From contig JALXEI010000341.1 in NCBI GenBank assembly GCA_027069645.1, positions 1 to 35,064 of the forward strand: a stretch of DNA of 35,064 nt. Reading direction: 5' to 3'. Within the stretch, counting starts at the first letter, position 1, and every line of letters starts with the position of its first letter. Positions 1,667-19,539 of the stretch are shown here, one piece after another. The notes under the pieces are model-generated. The model was given only the letters and a program-made list of their open reading frames with translations, did no database searches and had not been told where the DNA came from. This DNA comes from Hyphomicrobiales bacterium. Lineage in GTDB: Bacteria; Pseudomonadota; Alphaproteobacteria; Rhizobiales; JAKIUO01. The translations under genes were made by a program, and so were the position numbers.

Positions 1667-4081
1667 TTACCGGCCATTGCTCGCCGGATTTCGCAGTTTC
1701 GTGGCCTTTTTCAACAGTTCAACCGGCGCGACATACCAGTCGCCCGAGCCGGGAATGCGCCCTGGCACGAAGAAATAGAATTGACGCCCGCTCGCTCCGG
1801 TTCGGCTTCCGCCTGCTTCCTTGCGGCGCGTTTGCAACCCGGCTGTCCGGCCAACGCTGGCAGTTACGCCACGATTCCGGCCGACGGAACGGTTTGTGCC
1901 TGTGTTCGGGGCCGCCTTCAACTTCTCGCCGCCGGGGCGAACCGTGGTATAGACCCAGCGGTTCTGTTCACGTACCCAGACCATCTGTCGCCTGCCACGA
2001 CCCTTGCTTTCCGCATGACTGCCAATTGCAGAACGGGCGGGGGCGGGACCTTCGGCAAGCCCCGATTTTTCCCTGACCGTTGGCCCCGCTCCAGGGCCGC
2101 TTTTTTGCCTGTCCTGTTTCTTTCCTGCCCCGGATTTCCCCGCTACAGATGTCGCAGCCGTTTTCTTGCGGGCAACGGTGACGCCTGCGGTTGCCGATAC
2201 GCCTGACGTGGCCGCGTCGCCAGCCGGTTGCCGGTCTGTCCTTTTTGTCGTCTTTGCTGCCTTTACTGCCTTTGTACCGGTATCCGTGGCCTTTGCCATT
2301 TGCCGCGTTTTGCGGGCGGGTGATTTTTTCGGTGTCACATAAACCCAGCGCCCGTTACACTGCACCCAGCCACCGGTAGCCGGCGCCTTGCCGGCCTGAC
2401 GGACGCGCGTCCCCGCGCCTGACGTTCCGGCCCTGTCTTTCGCCGCCGCGCGCGGAACATAGACCCAGCGACCATTGATTTTCGACCAGGCGCCGTTTTT
2501 CACTGTTTTCACCTTGCCGACCGCACGGGATTTCGGATGCACCGTATTGCCAGCCGGACGTTGCACCGACCCTTTTGCCGCACGGGCCGCAGCCTTTTTC
2601 CGGTCTGGCGTTTTTCCGACCGGTTTCATGACCTTTCGCACACGCGCATCCGGCGTCGTTTTTCCGGTCTTTGCGCCAGCTTTTGCGGTGACCTTTGCAT
2701 TTGTCCCCTGCCCCTGCTCCCTGACAACAGACTGTTTCTCCCCGTCAGTTTCTGTTGTGGATTTGGCCGCTGCGGCCTTTTTCTTTTTGATCTCTCCCGA
2801 AGCAGTCTTTTTCTTTTGGACCTTGCGGTCGGTCATGCCCTTGAGGGTGGAACTGTAGGTCCTCGATTTATCAAAAACATAGACCCAGTTGCGACCGCGA
2901 CCGACCCAGCCATCAGCATTTTCGGAATTGCGTATCATATCGCCAAGCCCGTAAATTCCGGGGGCAACGCCGCGCCTGTATGGCGCATAAACCCAGCGGC
3001 CGTCCGTGCGCCCGGTTTCCCCTCGCGCCGTCATTTGTGCTGCCGTTAAACCGGTTTGACCAAATGCCCTGGCAAGAGGTGAGTCCCTGTCGGGAACCCA
3101 GAAATAGGTCCCCTTGTGATCGGAAGCCGTTTGTTTCCGGTTTTTTTTCACGCGTTCCGTACCAACAGCCGCCGCCACCCGACCGCTGACCGTCTTTTTC
3201 TTCACGGTTTCCCTGCGCGCCTTCTTCACGGCAATCGCACCGGTCCTGTCCACATGTTGCTTCCCTGAAAGCGCGGGCTTCCCGGAAACAACAGCCTGCT
3301 TCTTCATCACAGGCTGTTTGGCAACCGGTTTGTGCAAGGGGAGCGATTTCGACCGGATCGAGGGTTTTTGTTCAACCGTTTTTTTGCTCTCTGCGGATTT
3401 TCCGGGCTTCAAACCTGTCGCGCCGGACCGGACATGGCCTGCGGCCACTCTGTTTTTCGAATGCTTTTCATTCCCGTCTTTCTTCGGCAACCTCAATCGC
3501 TCTTTTTCTTGCGCTGCGTTAATCCTGCCCACAGCAACAGGGCTGTCCGGTTGTCTTGCCGCGGGGGCTGTAACAATCCGCTTTCCTTGCGCGGCCTCGT
3601 CAGCAGATTTCTCGCTTTTGGCCATCCCTTCCGCCCGATGATTCTTCGATTTGACCGGAGCCGGTGTTGAAGTAACAACTTTGGTGGCTGGCTTTACGCC
3701 CTTTACCGCTGGCATTTTTTTTGCCGCTTGCGAAGCCCTGGCATCGCTCCCGGGTTTTGTCACAACGGGTGCCACCGGTGCGGCCTTCACCTGTTTTTCA
3801 TGCGAAGCGGAACCGTCCTTCGTCTCTCGGGCTGCTTTTTTGCCCTCCGGATGCGGTACGGCCTGCGGCGCAGTTGTGGTCTTTTTTTCGGTTTCACCGA
3901 AGGGGGACCAGAAATATTTGCCAAGGCCGGACAATCCCTTGCGGATATTTTCAATAAATTGCCCCGGATTGCCATGATCATTTTCTGCCGCCTGCGCCAC
4001 AGGGGCCGCCAGAGACAGAAAGAACAGGGTAAACAGAAGAATTCCTCGCCCGCGGGCTTTTGAACTGGCAAACATTTTCAT
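1667..4081 (-). CDS. exported, extremely basic K/A/T/P/G-rich low-complexity protein with dispersed aromatic G-x-W-V-Y-V motifs (function unknown)
   Basis: Uninterrupted 2.4-kb ORF with an N-terminal signal peptide (MKMFASSKARGRGILLFTLFFLSLAAPVAQA/AE). Recurrent motifs are GTYFWVP, GRWVYAP, GWVGRGRNWVYVF, AWSKINGRWVYVP, GWVQCNGRWVYVTP, VWVREQNRWVYTT, QFYFFVP and DWYVAP. On the + strand these appear as cata[ag]acccag strings near 1948, 2338, 2458, 2878 and 2985. Confidence 0.75.
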   Translation of the reverse strand: MKMFASSKARGRGILLFTLFFLSLAAPVAQAAENDHGNPGQFIENIRKGLSGLGKYFWSPFGETEKKTTTAPQAVPHPEGKKAARETKDGSASHEKQVKAAPVAPVVTKPGSDARASQAAKKMPAVKGVKPATKVVTSTPAPVKSKNHRAEGMAKSEKSADEAAQGKRIVTAPAARQPDSPVAVGRINAAQEKERLRLPKKDGNEKHSKNRVAAGHVRSGATGLKPGKSAESKKTVEQKPSIRSKSLPLHKPVAKQPVMKKQAVVSGKPALSGKQHVDRTGAIAVKKARRETVKKKTVSGRVAAAVGTERVKKNRKQTASDHKGTYFWVPDRDSPLARAFGQTGLTAAQMTARGETGRTDGRWVYAPYRRGVAPGIYGLGDMIRNSENADGWVGRGRNWVYVFDKSRTYSSTLKGMTDRKVQKKKTASGEIKKKKAAAAKSTTETDGEKQSVVREQGQGTNAKVTAKAGAKTGKTTPDARVRKVMKPVGKTPDRKKAAARAAKGSVQRPAGNTVHPKSRAVGKVKTVKNGAWSKINGRWVYVPRAAAKDRAGTSGAGTRVRQAGKAPATGGWVQCNGRWVYVTPKKSPARKTRQMAKATDTGTKAVKAAKTTKRTDRQPAGDAATSGVSATAGVTVARKKTAATSVAGKSGAGKKQDRQKSGPGAGPTVREKSGLAEGPAPARSAIGSHAESKGRGRRQMVWVREQNRWVYTTVRPGGEKLKAAPNTGTNRSVGRNRGVTASVGRTAGLQTRRKEAGGSRTGASGRQFYFFVPGRIPGSGDWYVAPVELLKKATKLRNPASNGR

Positions 4082-12667: not shown

Positions 12668-14683
12668 ATGAACAAACAGAACGACTCGCCCCGCAAACCG
12701 GCCTTTCGCAATGACATCCAGGGACTGCGCGGTGTAGCGATTATTGCCGTCCTGCTGTTTCATTTCCGGTTTGGCGGTGCCAGTGGCGGTTTTCTCGGTG
12801 TTGATATCTTTTTTGTCATATCCGGCTTTTTGATCACCACAATTCTGCAAAAAAATACCGACCGGCCCTTCTCCCGCAACCTGCTGACTTTTTATGGCAA
12901 ACGCTTCTGGCGCATCTTTCCCGCCTGTATTGTTGTTATACTCGCTAGTCTTGCCGCGGGCTGGCTGATCCTCCTTCCCGAAGATCTCGCCCGTCTTGGT
13001 CGCTCATCCATTTTCTCGGCGCTGTTTGCTTCCGATTTTTTCTTCTTTGGCGAGGCGGGCTATTTTGACCTCTCGGGGATTTTCAAACCCCTGCTGCATA
13101 CCTGGTCGCTGGCGGTTGAAATGCAGTTTTATGCGATCTGGCCCTTTTTGCTGTTGTGGTTCTCTTCAACAGGGAAACTTTCTCTCACAAAGGCTCTGGT
13201 CCTGTTTTTCATACTGATGTTTGCGGGCAGTACGGCGCTGTCCATCGGAGATCCCGAAAACGCCTTTTTCATGATGTATTCACGCTTGTGGGAATTTGCT
13301 GCCGGGGCCATTGTCGCACTCGCGCTTTCTCGCAGACCGCCATGCTCTTCAACGGTTCTCGCCGGTCTTTTCGGCTGGCTCGCAATGATCCTGCTGATCA
13401 TATCGTTTTTCACCGTCAGCAATGATATGCTGCTCCCGGCACCCGGTGCCCTGCTCGCCGTTCTGGCGACGGCAGGACTGATCGGGCTGGGGTCGGCAAG
13501 TCCCGCGACATTCCGGCTGTTATCCTTCCCCCCGCTGGTGTGGATCGGCGAGATTTCCTACAGCCTCTATCTCGTTCACTGGCCGTTGATCGTCTATATA
13601 AGCTATCTGCTTTATCCGCAGCCCTCGTTTGCAACGCGTGCTCTGGCGCTTGCAGCCTGCCTGCCCCTCGCCTTTTTGCTTTACCGGTTTGTCGAGGTGC
13701 CCTTTCGCGACCGCGGCAAAAAGCAGCCCTTTGCTCCTGTGCTGGTCGGCACCGCGATTGCTACGCTGGCCTTTGTCCTGATCACCGGTCAGTTTGTCCT
13801 TGTCAGAGACGGCGTTCCCGAACGATTTGCAGCCCCCACACTGGCGGCCCTCGACAGGATTGAACCACACCCCGGCCCGCAAGTTAAATGGCAGGGGGGA
13901 GAAACGCTGCCTGTAACATCCCCGAAAATTGTTCTCTGGGGCGATTCACACGCCCTGCATTTTAAAAACACACTCGCGCGCGAGGCGAGTGCCGCCGGAT
14001 ACCGGTTGCAAACCCTCGCCGCCCCGAGTTGTCCGCCCATATACGGTGTCTATCTCAAGCGTCATACCCTTTCCATCGCCAAGGGCTGTTATCGCAAAAA
14101 CCGGAAGGCCCTCTATTCCATTCTTCGCAATCCTCACATCGCTATTGTGATCCTCGCCGCGCGCTGGTCTTTTTATGCCGAAACCCGTCGTTTTGGCGGC
14201 GAGGCCGGGGGGCGGGCCTTCCTCACTGACAGCAAATGGGCAGCGGTCTCCGTGTCCCGAAGCCGCAGCCATTTTGCTGGCGGCCTGCGCAACACCGTTC
14301 AACGACTGGTTGACAGTGGCAAACGCGTCATTCTGCTGGGACAGGTGCCCGAATTCGGCTTTGATCCGCCCCGCTGCATCAAGATGAGCCTTGTCAGCGG
14401 CATTGGCAGGGAGGTCTGTACGATTTCCATCGCGAAAATGCGCCAGCGGCAGAAATTTGCAGAGCAAGTCATGGAGAAGATTGCTTCTGCCAGTTCAAAG
14501 GTGCGTTTTTTTCGCACCAGCGGCCCGTTTTGCAATAATTCAGTCTGCTCGCCACTGGTTTCCGGGCAAATCGCCTACAGCGATGATGATCACATCAATC
14601 CGACGGGTGCCGATACGGCCTTGCAAAATCTGCGGCTGCCACACGCCGGAGCGGTCATCCCTGTTTCCGATAGGTCCCCATGA
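12668..14683 (+). CDS. acyltransferase family 3 (OafA-like) membrane protein with C-terminal SGNH-type domain
   Basis: The motif RNDIQGLRGVAIIAVLLFHF is followed by about 10 hydrophobic segments. The C-terminal soluble domain carries VLWGDSHALH. The start was moved to ATG 12668 (MNKQND...); the frame is open from 12494. Confidence 0.85.
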   Translation: MNKQNDSPRKPAFRNDIQGLRGVAIIAVLLFHFRFGGASGGFLGVDIFFVISGFLITTILQKNTDRPFSRNLLTFYGKRFWRIFPACIVVILASLAAGWLILLPEDLARLGRSSIFSALFASDFFFFGEAGYFDLSGIFKPLLHTWSLAVEMQFYAIWPFLLLWFSSTGKLSLTKALVLFFILMFAGSTALSIGDPENAFFMMYSRLWEFAAGAIVALALSRRPPCSSTVLAGLFGWLAMILLIISFFTVSNDMLLPAPGALLAVLATAGLIGLGSASPATFRLLSFPPLVWIGEISYSLYLVHWPLIVYISYLLYPQPSFATRALALAACLPLAFLLYRFVEVPFRDRGKKQPFAPVLVGTAIATLAFVLITGQFVLVRDGVPERFAAPTLAALDRIEPHPGPQVKWQGGETLPVTSPKIVLWGDSHALHFKNTLAREASAAGYRLQTLAAPSCPPIYGVYLKRHTLSIAKGCYRKNRKALYSILRNPHIAIVILAARWSFYAETRRFGGEAGGRAFLTDSKWAAVSVSRSRSHFAGGLRNTVQRLVDSGKRVILLGQVPEFGFDPPRCIKMSLVSGIGREVCTISIAKMRQRQKFAEQVMEKIASASSKVRFFRTSGPFCNNSVCSPLVSGQIAYSDDDHINPTGADTALQNLRLPHAGAVIPVSDRSP

Positions 14684-15131
14684 GAACCGTCTGTGCCAGT
14701 TCATGCCCTTCGATCGCCGCCAGCAGCCGGTCCTTTGTCGGTTCGCCAAGATCGTCAAGAACCACGTCGAGCGCGTAAAGCTTGAAGAAATAGCGGTGGC
14801 GACCAATGGGCGGACAGGGACCGCCCCAGCCGGTACGGTTCCAGTCATTAAGACCCTCCTTTGTCCCTGCGGGCAGAGCTTCCGGGGATATGTTTTCGAT
14901 CAGTCCGGTGCTGTCGGCAGGCAGGTTGTAAAGCACCCAGTGCACATAAACCATTTTTGGTGCCTCGGGGTCGGGGGCATCCGGATCATCGACAATCAGC
15001 GCAAAACTCTTCGTACCGGCCGGAGCGCCGCTCCACGCCAGTTGTGGTGAAAAATCCTTGCCCTCACAGGTAAATTCGCGTGGTATCTCACCCTCATGGG
15101 CAAAATCTGTGGATGTAATAACAAAAGCCAT
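14655..15131 (-). CDS. YbhB/YbcL (PEBP, Raf-kinase-inhibitor-like) family protein
   Basis: 158 aa with FTCEGKDFSPQLAWSGAP...LIVDDPDAP...HWVLYN...GPCPPIGRHRYFFKLYALD, the classical bacterial PEBP signature. RBS ggggaggaa. Confidence 0.85.
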   Translation of the reverse strand: MAFVITSTDFAHEGEIPREFTCEGKDFSPQLAWSGAPAGTKSFALIVDDPDAPDPEAPKMVYVHWVLYNLPADSTGLIENISPEALPAGTKEGLNDWNRTGWGGPCPPIGRHRYFFKLYALDVVLDDLGEPTKDRLLAAIEGHELAQTVLMGTYRKQG

Positions 15132-15178: not shown

Positions 15179-17017
15179 TCAGTAAACCCGCTTTTTGGGT
15201 TTGATATATTCCACCTCGTTTGTCATCGTATAGGCGTGCACCGGACGATCACCGGCTTTCACCTCGCGCTTTTGCGCGTCGATCCAGTGCAGGGAATGTT
15301 TCATCCAGTTTTCATCGTCCCGTTCGGGATAATCCTCGCGGGCATGGGCACCGCGACTTTCCAGACGCCCGGCGGCGCCGGTCATGGTGGTGACGGCCTG
15401 AAGGATGAGATTTTCATATTCAAGGCTTTCAATGAGATCCGTGTTCCAGATCAGCGAACGGTCCGTGACCTTTATATCCTCGCCCTGCTCCCAGACCTTG
15501 CGCAGCAGTGCCTGTCCTTCTTCCAGCACCTCGCCTGTACGGAACACGGCGCAATTGTTCTGCATGACCTTTTGCATATCAAGACGCAACTTCGCTGTAG
15601 GCGTGCCGCCATCGGCATGACGCAAACGGTCCAGTCGCTCCAGCGCCAGTGCCCCGGCATTGCGGGGCAAATCGGCATGTTTGCCATGTGGTTCAAGCTG
15701 GGCGATGCAGCGCTCGGCCGTGGCCCGGCCAAACACCACAAGGTCAATCAGCGAGTTGGAGCCCAGCCGATTGGCCCCGTGCACGGAAACACAGGCGGCT
15801 TCGCCCACCGCCATCAAACCGGGACAAATGGCATCCGGGTCACCGTTTTTGGCCGAAATGACCTCGCCGTGGAAATTGGTCGGAATCCCGCCCATATTGT
15901 AATGCGCCGTGGGGATCACCGGAATGGGATCGCGCGTCACGTCTACACCGGCAAAAATGCGTGAACTCTCGGAAATACCGGGTAGCCGCTCATGGATAAT
16001 GGCCGGGTCGAGATGATCGAGATGCAAAAAGATATGATCTTTTTCCGGACCGACGCCGCGCCCTTCACGGATTTCAATGGTCATCGCCCGGCTGACCACA
16101 TCGCGCGAGGCCAGATCCTTTGCAGTTGGCGCGTAGCGCTCCATGAAACGCTCGCCCTCGCTATTGGTGAGATAGCCGCCCTCGCCGCGCACCCCTTCGG
16201 TGATCAGCATCCCCGCGCCATAAATGCCGGTGGGATGAAACTGCACAAATTCCATATCCTGCAAGGGCAGCCCGGCCCTGAGCACCATTGCATTACCATC
16301 GCCGGTGCAGGTATGGGCCGAGGTGCAGGAGAAATAGGTACGGCCATAGCCGCCGGTGGCCAGAATGGTGCGATGGGCGCGGAAGCGATGCAGGGAGCCG
16401 TCCTCAAGGCAAAGGGCGATAACGCCGCGACAGGCGCCCTCGTCATCCATGATCAGGTCAATGGCAAAATATTCGATAAAGAATTCGGCCTGATGGCGCA
16501 GCGACTGACCATAAAGCGTGTGCAAAATGGCGTGTCCCGTACGGTCGGCGGCGGCGCAGGTGCGCATGGCGGGCGGCCCCTCGCCAAATTCGGTGGTCAT
16601 GCCGCCAAACGGGCGCTGATAGATCTTGCCCTCGTCATTGCGCGAAAACGGTACGCCATAATGTTCCAGTTCGTAAACCGCGGCAGGCGCCTCGCGGCAC
16701 AGATATTCGATTGAGTCCTGATCTCCCAGCCAGTCGGAGCCCTTGACCGTATCATACATGTGCCAGCGCCAGTCATCCGGCCCCATATTGCCAAGCGACG
16801 CCGCCACGCCGCCCTGGGCCGCAACGGTATGGGAGCGCGTCGGAAAAACCTTGGTAATGCAGCCCGTGCGCAACCCCGCTTCCGAAGCGCCAAGCGTTGC
16901 CCGCAAACCGGCTCCGCCCGCGCCCACCACCAGCACGTCAAAATCGTGATCCACAAAATCATAAACGCCGGGTCTGGCATAAGCCGCGTTCACGCCATTA
17001 TTGTTATTGTCTGCCAT
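15179..17017 (-). CDS. sdhA: succinate dehydrogenase flavoprotein subunit
   Basis: FAD-binding [14 protein letters not shown], the SHTVAAQGG histidyl-FAD site, and conserved HPTG and RLGSNSL segments along the full length. The start is ATG 17017 (GTG 17020 is also in frame). Confidence 0.95.
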
Positions 17018-17061
17018 CACATCCGCCTTTTATTTTATGCTGCCATACGCGCCGCTCACAG

Positions 17062-17230
17062 CTCACACTGCCAACTCTCTGCAATATGGATCCCCGCCTG
17101 CGCGGGGATGACACAGGGGGGACCCCCTGAAAAACAGACAATCCTCGCACTTCACTGTCCTTCACGCTCCCACTGTCACCCTTGCGCTCCCATTGTCATC
17201 CCCGCGAAGGCGGGGATCCATATTCCAGAG
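17062..17230. repeat. palindromic mini-element copy A (27-bp TIRs at 17087-17113 and 17194-17220)
   Basis: tggatccccgcctgcgcggggatgaca and tgtcatccccgcgaaggcggggatcca are reverse complements at 26 of 27 positions. Each TIR holds a ccccgc-N4-gcgggg hairpin. The left 89 bp differ from copy B at 5 positions. Confidence 0.85.
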
Positions 17231-17259
17231 AACTCGTAATTGTAAAACAAACTTCCCAC

Positions 17260-17559
17260 CTACAAATCCCAATCACAGGACAAATCCGACCAATCCGGGT
17301 TATCCTCCTCGATCAATTTTATCTTCCAGTCGCGATTCCATTTTTTCAATCTTTTCTCGCGCAGGATTGCCTCACCGATTTCCTGATGCACTTCATACCA
17401 CACCAGCCTGTGAACCCCGTATTTCGCCGTAAAGCCTTCAATGACGCCTTCCTTGTGTTCCCACACCCGTCGCAATAAATTGCTGGTCACACCAATATAA
17501 ATCGTCCCGTGTTTTGAGCTGGCGAGCATATAGACATAATACTGTTTTTCACCGTTCAT
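17260..17559 (-). CDS. small stand-alone GIY-YIG nuclease family protein (UPF0213/YhbQ-like)
   Basis: YYVYMLASSKHGTIYIGVTSNLLRRVWEHK...REKRLKKWNRDWKIKLIEEDNPDW shows the GIY...YIG, Arg and Glu signature of the about 100-aa GIY-YIG family. The start is ATG 17559 (GTG 17562 is in frame). Confidence 0.85.
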   Translation of the reverse strand: MNGEKQYYVYMLASSKHGTIYIGVTSNLLRRVWEHKEGVIEGFTAKYGVHRLVWYEVHQEIGEAILREKRLKKWNRDWKIKLIEEDNPDWSDLSCDWDL

Positions 17560-17560
17560 C

Positions 17561-17728
17561 ACTCACACCGCCAACTCTCTGCAATATGGATCCCCGCCTG
17601 CGCGGGGATGACACAGGAGGGACCTCCTGAACAACAGACAATCCTCACACCTCCACAGTCATCCCGCACTTCACTACCCTTCACGCTCCCACTGTCATTC
17701 CCGCGCAGGCGGGGATCCATACGCAGAG
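17561..17728. repeat. palindromic mini-element copy B (27-bp TIRs at 17587-17613 and 17693-17719)
   Basis: It has the same orientation and architecture as copy A, and its TIRs match at 26 of 27 positions. It begins 1-2 nt upstream of the GIY-YIG start codon. Confidence 0.85.
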
Positions 17729-17774: not shown

Positions 17775-18077
17775 TCATTCCTCGACCTTACAACCGGTTA
17801 GGGCGCAAACAGTATGCACAAATGCGAATAAAACCTGTTCATCCGAAAGATCACAATAAATAGGAAAGTCAGTCGAATTTCCTGCGGGATTACCTTCTTC
17901 ATTACACCGAACAACATTCAGATACCGTACAGTCCCTGCCCAATCTTTTTCCTTGGGTCTATGCTGAACCCACGCTCTTTTTTCCCATCCATCTGGAGGT
18001 TGCGTCCACTGAATGTAATAACTGCCATTTGAATCTCTCTGAATTTCCAAGTCCACTCTCCTTATCTCTCCCCTCAA
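17775..18077 (-). CDS. hypothetical small protein (91-100 aa), AT-rich, no ATG start
   Basis: The ORF has no Met codon at all. Candidate starts are TTG 18077 (overlapping the upstream stop), GTG 18056 or TTG 18050. A strong SD (taaggaga) lies 7 nt before TTG 18050. It is visibly AT-richer than its neighbours. I recognise no family. Confidence 0.45.
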   Translation of the reverse strand: MRGEIRRVDLEIQRDSNGSYYIQWTQPPDGWEKRAWVQHRPKEKDWAGTVRYLNVVRCNEEGNPAGNSTDFPIYCDLSDEQVLFAFVHTVCALTGCKVEE

Positions 18078-18736
18078 TGCCGCGCTGTCCCCTGCAAATC
18101 CTTGTATGGGGCAAACGCTTCCATCCCCCGCCAGTCGGGCAGGGCCTGATCGAGGAAGTCGATCATTTGCGTCTGTTTTTCGGGGTTGGGCTTTTCCGTC
18201 GTTTCCTGCAACACTTCGAGATAATATTCCTCATCCGTTTGAAGCGCCCTGATGAAATCATCGAAATGCAGCGCCAGCGTCACCCAGGCGTTGGCTTCGG
18301 GCTGGTCTTCAAGGTCGGGGATGCCGTGGATGAAGGCGACAACACGATCCTCGCCGGTCTGCTCGAAATCGGTAAGGTCAAGATAAAGCTCGCAGCCCGA
18401 ATTATCCCGCGCGATGGGCAGTACCTGCGGCGGCAGTTGTGCGGCTTCGCGCGACAGTTTCAACTCGTGCTCAAATGTTCCGAAAGGCGAGCTTTCCAGC
18501 CGTCGCTTTGTACCGTAAAGCAGGGAAAAACTGCGCGGCACTTTCATGTCGGGGTGATCGACCTCGATATAATAACCATCCAGATTGCCGCCATTGGCAA
18601 CCTGCAAAAACTGTTTGTAGGCGTCGGGCAATTTTGTTTGCAGCTCTTTTTCCAGCGCCTCGATTTCCCCTTCGGCGGGCGCACCAAGAAAATCCCTGAT
18701 GATGATATTGCCAAATTTTGTATAGGTCGCACCCAT
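18074..18736 (-). CDS. SMI1/KNR4 (SUKH-1) family protein, immunity-protein-like
   Basis: Its N-terminal region IEALEKELQTKLPDAYKQFLQVANGG is the hallmark SMI1/KNR4 motif (LPxxYxxFLxxxNGG), and it is about 220 aa long. The ATG lies 2 nt after the sdhD TGA, with GGAGG inside the sdhD 3' end. Confidence 0.75.
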   Translation of the reverse strand: MGATYTKFGNIIIRDFLGAPAEGEIEALEKELQTKLPDAYKQFLQVANGGNLDGYYIEVDHPDMKVPRSFSLLYGTKRRLESSPFGTFEHELKLSREAAQLPPQVLPIARDNSGCELYLDLTDFEQTGEDRVVAFIHGIPDLEDQPEANAWVTLALHFDDFIRALQTDEEYYLEVLQETTEKPNPEKQTQMIDFLDQALPDWRGMEAFAPYKDLQGTARH

Positions 18737-18738
18737 AA

Positions 18739-19119
18739 TCAGCCTCCAAAGCTCAGTTTCAGAACCGCAAACAGGCAGGCGAAGCCGATAAAGATCGAGA
18801 AAAACACATTGCCCATCAGAAAGAGAATCTTCAGCCCCTCATGCTGCACATAGTCTTCAACAATCACCTTGAAGCCGAGATACATGTGAAAGACCACCGA
18901 CAGAATAAACAGCATCAGCCCGATTGAGACAAAGGGCGAGCCGAGATAGGCGCGTACGGCGCTGTAATCGTCACCAATATGAAATACGATGGAAAACAGC
19001 AGAAACAGGGTCAGAAATATATTGGCCACCGCCGTCAGGCGCTGCCACCAGAAATGACTGGTCCCCGAACGAGCCGGCCCCAGGCCCCTTACCCGTCCCA
19101 GCGGTGTTTGCATGCTCAT
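18739..19119 (-). CDS. sdhD: succinate dehydrogenase hydrophobic membrane anchor subunit
   Basis: 126 aa with GTSHFWWQRLTAVAN...HMYLGFKVIVEDYV and three TM segments. RBS aaggag. It lies 12 nt downstream of sdhC. Confidence 0.9.
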   Translation of the reverse strand: MSMQTPLGRVRGLGPARSGTSHFWWQRLTAVANIFLTLFLLFSIVFHIGDDYSAVRAYLGSPFVSIGLMLFILSVVFHMYLGFKVIVEDYVQHEGLKILFLMGNVFFSIFIGFACLFAVLKLSFGG

Positions 19120-19131
19120 TTTGGCGCTCCT

Positions 19132-19539
19132 TTATAGATGTCCGCGCGCCCAGTAGGCGAGGAACCAGACGAGAATGGTCAGCAACACCGAACCGATCAG
19201 CGTCCCCCATGCCAGTATGTCCAGGGTCTTTTTCTCAAACCCGGCGCCGGTATCCCACAAAAGATGACGCATGCCGCCCAGCATGTGATGAATCAGCGCC
19301 CAGCTGTAGCCCAGCAGAATGAAGCGTCCGATATTTGAGCCGAAAAAACCGTTGACCTCGTTGAAATAGCGCTCGCTCGACGCCGCAGCGATCAGCCACC
19401 AGGCGAGCAGAAATGTGCCGAAATAGAGCACCGCGCCGGATATGCGATGGGCAATCGACATCATCATGGTCATGGTAAAGCGATAGATTTGCAGGTGAGG
19501 CGAAAGCGGACGGTCTGCCGGATTGCGATATTTTGCCAT
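19132..19539 (-). CDS. sdhC: succinate dehydrogenase cytochrome b556 subunit
   Basis: 135 aa with RPLSPHLQIYRF...SIAHRISG...HHMLGGMRHLLWD, the heme-ligand context typical of SdhC. Confidence 0.9.
   Translation of the reverse strand: MAKYRNPADRPLSPHLQIYRFTMTMMMSIAHRISGAVLYFGTFLLAWWLIAAASSERYFNEVNGFFGSNIGRFILLGYSWALIHHMLGGMRHLLWDTGAGFEKKTLDILAWGTLIGSVLLTILVWFLAYWARGHL

Follow-up and report, generated by a model that had tools for sequence, protein, structure and literature searches.

The ssn locus and its hairpins

The stretch analysed here, 35,064 nucleotides of contig JALXEI010000341.1 from a Hyphomicrobiales bacterium (hereafter the window), carries on its minus strand, inside a succinate dehydrogenase (sdh) operon, a small gene for a GIY-YIG endonuclease flanked on each side by a pair of hairpin-forming repeats. 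Because the repeats fit a published motif, the product is homologous to Neisseria SsnA and its catalytic residues align with those of SsnA, the locus is very probably an Ssn/SRM system, that is, an Ssn-family GIY-YIG endonuclease gene (ssn) together with four cognate 28-nt SRM hairpins. The features of the cassette are listed below; all four hairpins fit the SRM pattern.

17052..17085, minus strand: leader copy A, attgcagagagttggcagtgtgag... on the minus strand, between A1 and the sdhA start; a duplicate of the ssn leader
17086..17113, minus strand: SRM hairpin A1, outer copy on the sdhA side, with the same sequence as B1
17114..17193, no strand: spacer A (80 nt), with a palindrome (17114-17129) beside the GTCA end of A1 and the half-site fragments GCTCCCAYTGTCAY
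17194..17221, plus strand: SRM hairpin A2, TGTCATCCCCGCGAAGGCGGGGATCCAT, inner copy on the 3' side of ssn, in the non-coding strand, 39 bp from the stop codon
17260..17562, minus strand: ssn, 100 aa (99 aa from a second ATG at 17559), single-domain GIY-YIG, probable member of the Ssn family
17552..17585, minus strand: leader copy B, between B1 and the ssn start codon, overlapping the first ssn codons
17586..17613, minus strand: SRM hairpin B1, TGTCATCCCCGCGCAGGCGGGGATCCAT on the minus strand, inner copy on the 5' side of ssn, in the coding strand, 24 bp from the start codon
17614..17692, no strand: spacer B (79 nt), with a palindrome (17614-17629) showing a G>A / C>T double change and the half-site CAGTCATCCCGC at 17656
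17693..17720, plus strand: SRM hairpin B2, TGTCATTCCCGCGCAGGCGGGGATCCAT, outer copy upstream of ssn

A search for the 27-mer TGGATCCCCGCCTGCGCGGGGATGACA gave four matches at one mismatch or less in the 35-kb window (0 expected from shuffles), at 17087-17113 (+), 17194-17220 (-), 17587-17613 (+) and 17693-17719 (-). No further copy was found elsewhere in the window, and a looser scan (GTCA plus any hairpin) added none. The published SRM pattern, coded as HGTCWYN(0-2)YYVSBRHN(0-5)WNVSBRGN(0-2)RNCYNB, likewise gave exactly four matches, with 0.15 expected. Each hairpin is predicted to fold with a stem of 8 bp and a loop of 4 nt; in B2 one stem position is a T-G mismatch and the local hairpin is weaker.

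The hairpins are arranged as two repeat units (doublets A and B) of 134 bp and 133 bp, lying in direct orientation at an offset of 500 bp, one on each side of ssn. The initial annotation had described a GIY-YIG gene bracketed by two direct copies of an inverted-repeat-bounded element, and all the features that it named were found where it had placed them. A recount also bore out that the arms within each unit agree at 26 of 27 positions and that the first 89 bp from 17062 contain exactly 5 differences between the copies (17069, 17118, 17125, 17132 and 17147); the right half of spacer B differs from spacer A through indels. At the borders of each unit the inverted repeats extend to 38-43 nt, and the whole unit is predicted to fold into one long hairpin (z-scores -6.9 to -10.7). 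The direct repeat reaches ~34 nt past the inverted repeat, and one leader sequence thus precedes both ssn and sdhA. A comparable hairpin and leader stand in front of an unannotated open reading frame (ORF) at a related locus (L209, described below), and hairpin plus leader may be a portable 5' module. An Rfam scan of the entire window returned one tRNA only and no family at the ssn locus.

A probable Ssn-family nuclease and its hairpin repeat

The ssn product matches Pfam PF01541 (GIY-YIG) over residues 7-81 (E = 2.8e-15), with no other domain above cut-off. An NCBIfam search gave no model above cut-off, the only match in the PDB, to the UPF0213 structure 1zg2, was weak (E = 0.003), and a look-up of the exact protein sequence in public assemblies returned no record. 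In tblastn the protein matched the N. gonorrhoeae chromosome (E = 5e-29), at an ORF of 94 aa which has Y6, Y17 and E64 and is surrounded by 9 exact copies of the neisserial repeat NTS in 3.3 kb. Pairwise BLASTP against this gonococcal SsnA, for which the sequence was taken from an N. gonorrhoeae chromosome in PLSDB, showed 57% identity over 91 aa without gaps (E = 2e-39). Residues Y10, Y21 and E68 of the window protein align with Y6, Y17 and E64 of SsnA, the residues mutated in the published work, and the three window residues, together with R31 and H35, do not vary among 19 homologs drawn from many phyla. As regards the source of the comparison sequence, two complete N. gonorrhoeae chromosomes (2.17 Mb; NZ_CP119140.1 and NZ_CP119142.1) are filed as plasmids in PLSDB and are nearly unannotated; the ssnA ortholog in NZ_CP119140.1 1880751-1884050 (L211) is unannotated in the PLSDB table.

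Chenal et al. 2025 (Nat Commun 16:2388, PMC11893778) describe Ssn as a ~94-aa single-domain GIY-YIG protein (CDD cd10448; type member N. meningitidis SsnA, NMV_0044) and report that its 28-nt hairpin repeat is bound only as single-stranded DNA, that strand being cut a few nt upstream. NTS is the Neisseria name of the repeat (CGTCATTCCCGCGMAVGCGGGAATCYRG, containing the classical dRS3 palindrome), SRM the general one; it is found near 71% of ssnA homologs and on both sides of 42%, an ssn gene is present in 81% of the genomes that exceed 200 SRMs, and specific binding and cleavage were demonstrated experimentally for four homologs (Chenal et al. 2025, PMC11893778). The traits by which an Ssn is recognised are a single GIY-YIG domain of less than 150 aa (here 100 aa), homology to Neisseria SsnA at E < 1e-10, catalytic residues equivalent to Y6, Y17 and E64, and at least one SRM in both flanks within 500 bp; the window locus has all of them, with two SRMs per side within ~160 bp. 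A strict Neisseria NTS (at most 1 mismatch) was rejected in favour of SRM, all four copies having 3-4 mismatches in 28 positions against the NTS consensus (3 in B2).

Several points weigh against this assignment. The window motif begins with TGTC, the Neisseria NTS with CGTC; the studied homologs differ among themselves in cut position and cross-reactivity, and a role in transformation was demonstrated for N. meningitidis only (Chenal et al. 2025, PMC11893778). Within the 35-kb window two scans found no SRM away from ssn, so that dispersed substrates in this organism are putative. At gonococcal ssnA the nearest SRMs are arranged as (-) gene (+), the reverse of the inner pair in the window, which shows that polarity varies within the system.

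The association between gene and repeat was surveyed in the best 80 homolog loci (one genome per species, 57-78% identity, loci of ~10 kb). These span Alpha-, Beta- and Gammaproteobacteria, as well as metagenome-assembled genomes (MAGs) labelled Deltaproteobacteria, Patescibacteria, Cyanobacteria, Planctomycetota, Chloroflexota, Nitrospirae, Ignavibacteriaceae, Omnitrophota and Aquimarina (a genus of Bacteroidota). An SRM lies within 300 bp of the gene in 66 of the 80 loci (82%) and on both sides in 38, and the motif is 46 times as dense inside this 300-bp zone (3.03 per kb) as over the remainder of the loci (0.066 per kb). The commonest arrangement puts a coding-strand SRM 30-65 bp 5' of the gene and an opposite-strand SRM 10-60 bp 3' of it, and (+) gene (-) is the most frequent nearest-neighbour layout (23 loci). 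The inner pair of the window shows this layout, both B1 and A2 having the position and strand that are commonest among the 80 loci. A near-identical hairpin stands beside homologs in Patescibacteria, Chloroflexota, Cyanobacteria, Planctomycetota and Proteobacteria.

The exact 27-mer of the window occurs in at least 120 metagenome stretches, and among the matches listed an ssn-like gene lies within 300 bp for only 5 of 68 evaluable copies. The repeat is abundant and mostly dispersed, yet the gene nearly always carries the repeat, a pattern like that of repetitive extragenic palindromes (REPs) and REP-associated tyrosine transposases (RAYTs). The initial annotation had likened gene and repeats to a nuclease with its cognate palindromes, a claim which would suffer if the repeat were not enriched beside GIY-YIG genes or if homologs went without flanking copies; the 80-locus survey encountered neither situation and upholds the pairing. 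The analogy that it drew with RAYTs and REPINs (REP doublets forming hairpins) is apt in view of the dispersed copies. Chenal et al. 2025 (PMC11893778) had already compared the system with REP, RAYT and BIME (bacterial interspersed mosaic element), and likened NTS-ssnA-NTS to an insertion sequence.

Some individual loci deserve mention. In a Leptolyngbya MAG (L034, 4296-4590) a tandem array with an 89-bp period lies 3' of the ssn homolog and holds seven SRMs in ~300 bp, two hairpin variants alternating on opposite strands; it resembles a small array of Neisseria intergenic mosaic elements (NIMEs) in a cyanobacterium. A viral contig from IMG/VR (L207, 60% identity) has hairpins at 2930-2955 and ~3320-3370 that begin with GCTCAT, not GTCAT, and fail the SRM pattern; one of them has a long loop, and a variant specificity may be involved. 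Contigs of 0.5-1.5 kb hold many of the closest homologs; such short contigs would be expected if ssn or the hairpins beside it interrupted metagenome assembly, a hint that the gene occurs in several copies or among repeats.

Work on homologs from Neisseria and Wolbachia showed that Ssn binds as a monomer to the hairpin that one strand forms in single-stranded DNA, and that recognition depends on the sequence of the stem, on the three nt preceding the palindrome and on the cytosine following it. With Mg2+ it cuts a few nt 5' of the motif, leaving duplex DNA and the opposite motif strand uncut; RNA was offered to a single homolog, N. meningitidis SsnA, which did not act on it, and in that species SsnA lowers the integration of NTS-bearing transforming DNA (Chenal et al. 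2025, PMC11893778). By analogy, the window enzyme would recognise its hairpin in single-stranded DNA by the stem, the 5' GTCAT and the base that follows the palindrome, on one strand only, and cut the same strand a few nt 5' of the motif. Four cuts would be predicted at both ends of each spacer, two per strand, sparing ssn and sdhA. For the minus-strand motifs (A1 and B1) the predicted cut falls in the 3' arm of the small palindrome, folding of which could occlude or protect the site. The outer SRM copies make each side a dRS3-RS-dRS3 (NIME-like) doublet. The likeliest role, again judged from the characterised homologs, would be the restriction or shaping of recombination, or the processing, of SRM-bearing single-stranded DNA, with dispersed hairpins as the genomic substrates; a past role of Ssn in spreading the hairpins is possible.

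Operon context, inheritance and alternative readings

On the minus strand the order is sdhC, sdhD, a SUKH/SMI1-KNR4 gene, a 100-aa ORF, doublet B, ssn, doublet A and sdhA, the cassette interrupting the sdh operon. The neighbouring genes are the following.

19132-19539, minus strand: sdhC, upstream of the cassette
18739-19119, minus strand: sdhD, upstream of the cassette
18074-18736, minus strand: SUKH/SMI1-KNR4 gene, starting 2 nt past the sdhD stop
17775-18077, minus strand: 100-aa ORF with no family match, overlapping the SUKH stop
15179..17020, minus strand: sdhA (succinate dehydrogenase flavoprotein, from the ORF list), directly downstream of the cassette
14655-15131, minus strand: 158-aa ORF

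The gene directly after sdhA is this 158-aa ORF and not sdhB, the iron-sulfur subunit not being adjacent. SUKH/SMI1-KNR4 proteins are a known type of immunity protein in polymorphic toxin systems; the gene is kept at the same spot in three related genomes (L001, L007 and L208) and is an unusual cargo inside an sdh operon. The slot between it and ssn is variable, with a different 183-aa gene in L001 and no gene called in L208; no homologue of the window's 100-aa ORF was found in L001 or L007, and Pfam gave no match for the variable neighbouring ORFs. The sole promoter-like site lies upstream of sdhC. As no promoter-like or terminator-like site was found in the cassette, it is likely co-transcribed with the sdh operon. 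Intrinsic terminators were considered for the hairpins and rejected, there being no T-runs and none having been called.

The order sdhD-SUKH-ssn-sdhA is common to the window, L001, L007 and L208. Across these three relatives the identity to the window is 87-89% for SdhA (which in them carries Pfam FAD_binding_2 and Succ_DH_flav_C), 91-94% for SdhD and 78-81% for Ssn. Since the order is kept in genomes whose SdhA is only 87-89% identical, the insertion is old and predates the split of the four genomes, and the cassette has long been inherited vertically as a passenger of the sdh operon. In Sphingomonadaceae the ssn ortholog lies at one fixed site in 13 of 13 loci, with all 78 pairs collinear on both flanks, and in other genera the context is mostly shared too. 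The suggestion of a recent insertion or homing of gene plus element upstream of sdhA finds no support in the four-genome order or in the fixed Sphingomonadaceae site. Four contigs encode an identical homolog (P0024); two of these are the same locus, and a third diverges 86 bp from the motif edge.

Paralogs of ssn, 71-79% identical, lie between atpG and atpD (L209 2460-2835) and between purQ and purL (L210 2450-2960, L008 5001-5444). The pur site is orthologous in L210 and L008, and L008 is from the same MAG as L007 (Dive100_bin1.47), which carries both an sdh copy (L007) and a pur copy (L008). The SRMs are arranged as (-) gene (+), tight against the ORF, in L209, and as (+) gene (+)(-) in L210 and L008. 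In the hairpins of L210 (2450-2477, 2833-2860 and ~2925-2952) and L008 (5333-5360) the stem CCCTGC/GCAGGG replaces CCCCGC/GCGGGG. This variant preserves pairing and escapes the published SRM pattern, which therefore under-counts real copies. The same two loci contain, 3' of ssn, a gene-less (+)(-) doublet whose spacer resembles the leader plus trailer of the gene-bearing unit in L208. Empty sdhD-sdhA, atpG-atpD or purQ-purL junctions were not found in the DNA examined. The ssn genes have moved in the past and are now vertically inherited at fixed sites, as RAYTs are.

On comparison of the relatives it was found that the conserved unit is the 28-nt hairpin and not the 134-bp block. The spacer is ~80 nt in the window and 24 nt in the syntenic L001, which has no clear counterpart of the small palindrome; L001 shares the double-doublet layout of the window, whereas L007 and L208 have the inner SRM pair only, without the outer copies. 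Among 61 neighbouring pairs of dispersed SRMs, 46 are of the "+-" class (GTCA ends outside, gaps of 5-131 bp) and 4 of the "-+" class (GTCA ends toward the spacer), and both window doublets belong to the rare "-+" class. The 134-bp unit is therefore not regarded as the functional repeat, its spacer being unconserved in relatives, its polarity rare and its palindrome recurring in none of the ~200 fetched loci. The two doublets of the window are 95% similar over 89 bp, against 85% in L001. As this high similarity runs on into the 34-nt leader, the doublets and leader were most likely homogenised by local duplication or gene conversion.

This bears on the small palindrome, in which the changes 17118 G>A and 17125 C>T affect the two partners of one base pair of a 16-nt palindrome, so that CAGGGGG..CCCCCTG (copy A) and CAGGAGG..CCTCCTG (copy B) both form a 6-bp hairpin. 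The initial annotation had taken this compensatory pair as a sign of selection on structure. The pair is present and the hairpin is kept, but as evidence for selection this single event, picked post hoc, is suggestive only; in simulation a compensatory pair arises by chance among 5 substitutions with P = 0.013 (any substitution) to 0.038 (transitions only), and gene conversion or local duplication of the doublets weakens the argument further. Beside other SRMs in ~200 fetched loci the palindrome had 0 matches, and within 24 nt 5' of the motif 192 of 198 SRMs show no hairpin at all, which marks the palindrome as a local feature outside the motif proper.

The conservation of sites has to be weighed against signs of mobility. 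It may be proposed that SRM-ssn-SRM represents, now or until recently, a new class of self-mobilising element, mobilised by a bare GIY-YIG single-stranded DNA endonuclease, with gene-less doublets (CGTC REPs, dRS3 and some Rickettsia palindromic elements, RPEs) as its offspring and the sdh, atp and pur paralogs as fossil insertions. We hold this to be conceivable though doubtful: paralogous insertions, the matching topology of gene-bearing and gene-less units and the cross-phylum spread favour it, whereas site fidelity within families is strong and no insertion was caught in the act. No follow-up literature on Ssn/SRM mobility was found.

A stronger version, in which SRM-ssn-SRM is an autonomous and currently active insertion sequence with Ssn as its transposase and gene-less inverted doublets as non-autonomous derivatives, appears unlikely. 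It draws on the analogy raised by Chenal et al. 2025 (PMC11893778), on paralogs of 71-81% identity at three operon-internal sites in one clade, two copies of which share one MAG, and on dispersed doublets built to the same plan as the gene-bearing unit (GTCA ends outside in 46 of 61). The gene-less doublet of L210 and L008, with its leader- and trailer-like spacer, the near-identical hairpins beside homologs of 57-70% identity across many phyla and the very short contigs of many homologs point the same way. Set against this, the sites are conserved between genomes (sdh in four, pur in two), the Sphingomonadaceae loci are uniformly collinear, neither an empty site nor a target duplication was found in the DNA examined, and homology among L003-L006 is not broken at the motif edge. 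Viral contigs yielded only 1 homolog, distant and with a variant hairpin, and 33 of 34 plasmid-collection records are typed as non-mobilizable, many being megabase-sized replicons. One cut per strand in single-stranded DNA is not sufficient by itself for excision and integration, and GIY-YIG enzymes are not known to have strand-transfer activity.

The initial annotation described the 134-bp units as mini-elements bounded by terminal inverted repeats, which the nuclease may propagate or home into. In its fullest form this reading makes the units discrete miniature inverted-repeat transposable elements (MITEs) and has the gene landing recently, with one element, inside a pre-existing copy upstream of sdhA. 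The 38-43-nt inverted repeats, the duplicated flanks of the directly repeated units, the same double-doublet layout in L001 and the long-hairpin fold of the entire unit agree with it. The evidence on conservation makes it quite improbable, as only the 28-nt hairpins are conserved while spacer and outer copies vary, the doublets have the polarity seen 4 times against 46, no other copy of the whole unit, spacer or palindrome was found in ~200 fetched loci, and the synteny is not that of a recent arrival. A MITE was accordingly rejected, with two local copies only, internal sequence unconserved in syntenic relatives and no target duplication evident. Homing is disfavoured as well, since the characterised homologs cut single-stranded DNA only and leave uncut the duplex that classical homing endonucleases cleave.

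It is very unlikely that the hairpins act mainly at the RNA level in the sdh transcript, as REP-like stabilisers, processing sites or attenuators, the adjacent nuclease being secondary. All parts are on the transcribed strand side of an operon in which neither promoter-like nor terminator-like sites occur internally, stable folds are predicted for the hairpins and for the small palindrome, and REP-type repeats have documented RNA effects. The association of gene and motif, however, holds across phyla irrespective of operon context, N. meningitidis SsnA is inactive on RNA, no Rfam family matches in the region, and with the motif on both strands only half of the copies would give the same RNA. 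Such an effect is nevertheless compatible with an Ssn/SRM system at this locus. Finally, a chance juxtaposition of a common intergenic repeat and an unrelated GIY-YIG gene, to which the many metagenome occurrences of the 27-mer and the 93% of evaluable copies away from ssn, among the matches listed, might lend some colour, has a negligible probability in view of the 46-fold SRM density near homologs, the preferred strand and distance in the 82% of loci with a nearby SRM and the specific binding and cleavage demonstrated for four homologs (PMC11893778).

The system among known repeat families

The locus is a further instance of the Ssn/SRM system published in 2025 and not a new kind of element; its recognition from raw sequence is a correct rediscovery, and the finding by itself adds little. 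It does add to the known range of Ssn/SRM an uncultured clade of Alphaproteobacteria with several ssn paralogs placed inside essential operons (sdh, atp and pur). The survey supplies positional and polarity rules, namely the (+) gene (-) layout, the 46-fold local enrichment and the 46:4 doublet bias, in addition to family-wide site fidelity, and these data bear on whether Ssn spreads hairpins in the manner proposed for RAYTs and REPINs. Any further Ssn/SRM pair could also serve as a sequence-specific reagent for cutting single-stranded DNA.

GIY-YIG homing endonucleases such as I-TevI and the phage T4 Seg proteins have a separate DNA-binding domain, cut duplex DNA at the intron-less or gene-less allele and have no flanking hairpins. 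The window gene resembles them in its catalytic domain and as a small stand-alone gene between conserved genes, but its product is a bare catalytic domain. With the Ssn of Neisseria it shares the size (~94-100 aa), equally spaced catalytic Tyr/Tyr/Glu residues and SRM-type 28-nt hairpins on both sides. The differences are that the host is an uncultured alphaproteobacterium, that ssn lies inside the sdh operon, that the stem is ATCCCC/GGGGAT instead of ATTCCC/GGGAAT, and that the 35-kb window holds 4 SRM copies where a Neisseria genome holds hundreds.

The best descriptive match for each window doublet is the isolated dRS3-RS-dRS3 unit of the Neisseria NIME, in which inverted 20-bp dRS3 repeats flank an RS unit of 50-150 bp (Bentley et al. 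2007, PMC1797815). The doublets have inverted 20-nt palindrome cores around spacers of 79-80 nt, within the RS size range. Unlike NIMEs, the window has two units and no long array, and the spacer belongs to no repeat family detectable in ~200 loci. Strict dRS3 (ATTCCC-N8-GGGAAT) was rejected, the window cores being ATCCCC-N8-GGGGAT with only the left arm of 17693-17720 reading ATTCCC.

A wider frame is given by the "CGTC-tagged REPs", under which Di Nocera et al. 2013 (PMC3733652) united dRS3, the Rickettsia repeats RPE-4 and RPE-6 and many alphaproteobacterial repeats. These have stems of 8-9 bp and loops of 4-5 nt and predominate in Alphaproteobacteria; they occur mostly as inverted dimers of one polarity, some with a small stem-loop at one end of the spacer, and they "apparently lack a dedicated transposase" (Di Nocera et al. 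2013, PMC3733652). The window hairpins fit the stem and loop description, but with TGTC in place of CGTC, and the published "HH" polarity may correspond to the dominant "+-" class found here. In Chenal et al. 2025 (PMC11893778) as in Di Nocera et al. 2013 (PMC3733652) the Neisseria representatives are identified with dRS3, and the CGTC-tagged REP superfamily would on this ground be linked to Ssn, so that the puzzle of 2013 gains a candidate enzyme.

There is a functional likeness to REPIN-RAYT and BIME systems, in which a nuclease gene is likewise flanked by its own hairpins, the dispersed repeats are often inverted doublets, the hairpin is recognised as single-stranded DNA and the gene is vertically inherited at a fixed site. 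The tag is GTCA here against GTAG there, and this clade has several paralogs per genome where RAYTs are single-copy. Membership among the RAYTs themselves was rejected, as the enzyme is a GIY-YIG nuclease and not an IS200/IS605-like HUH/Y1 tyrosine transposase; the likeness lies in the way of working.

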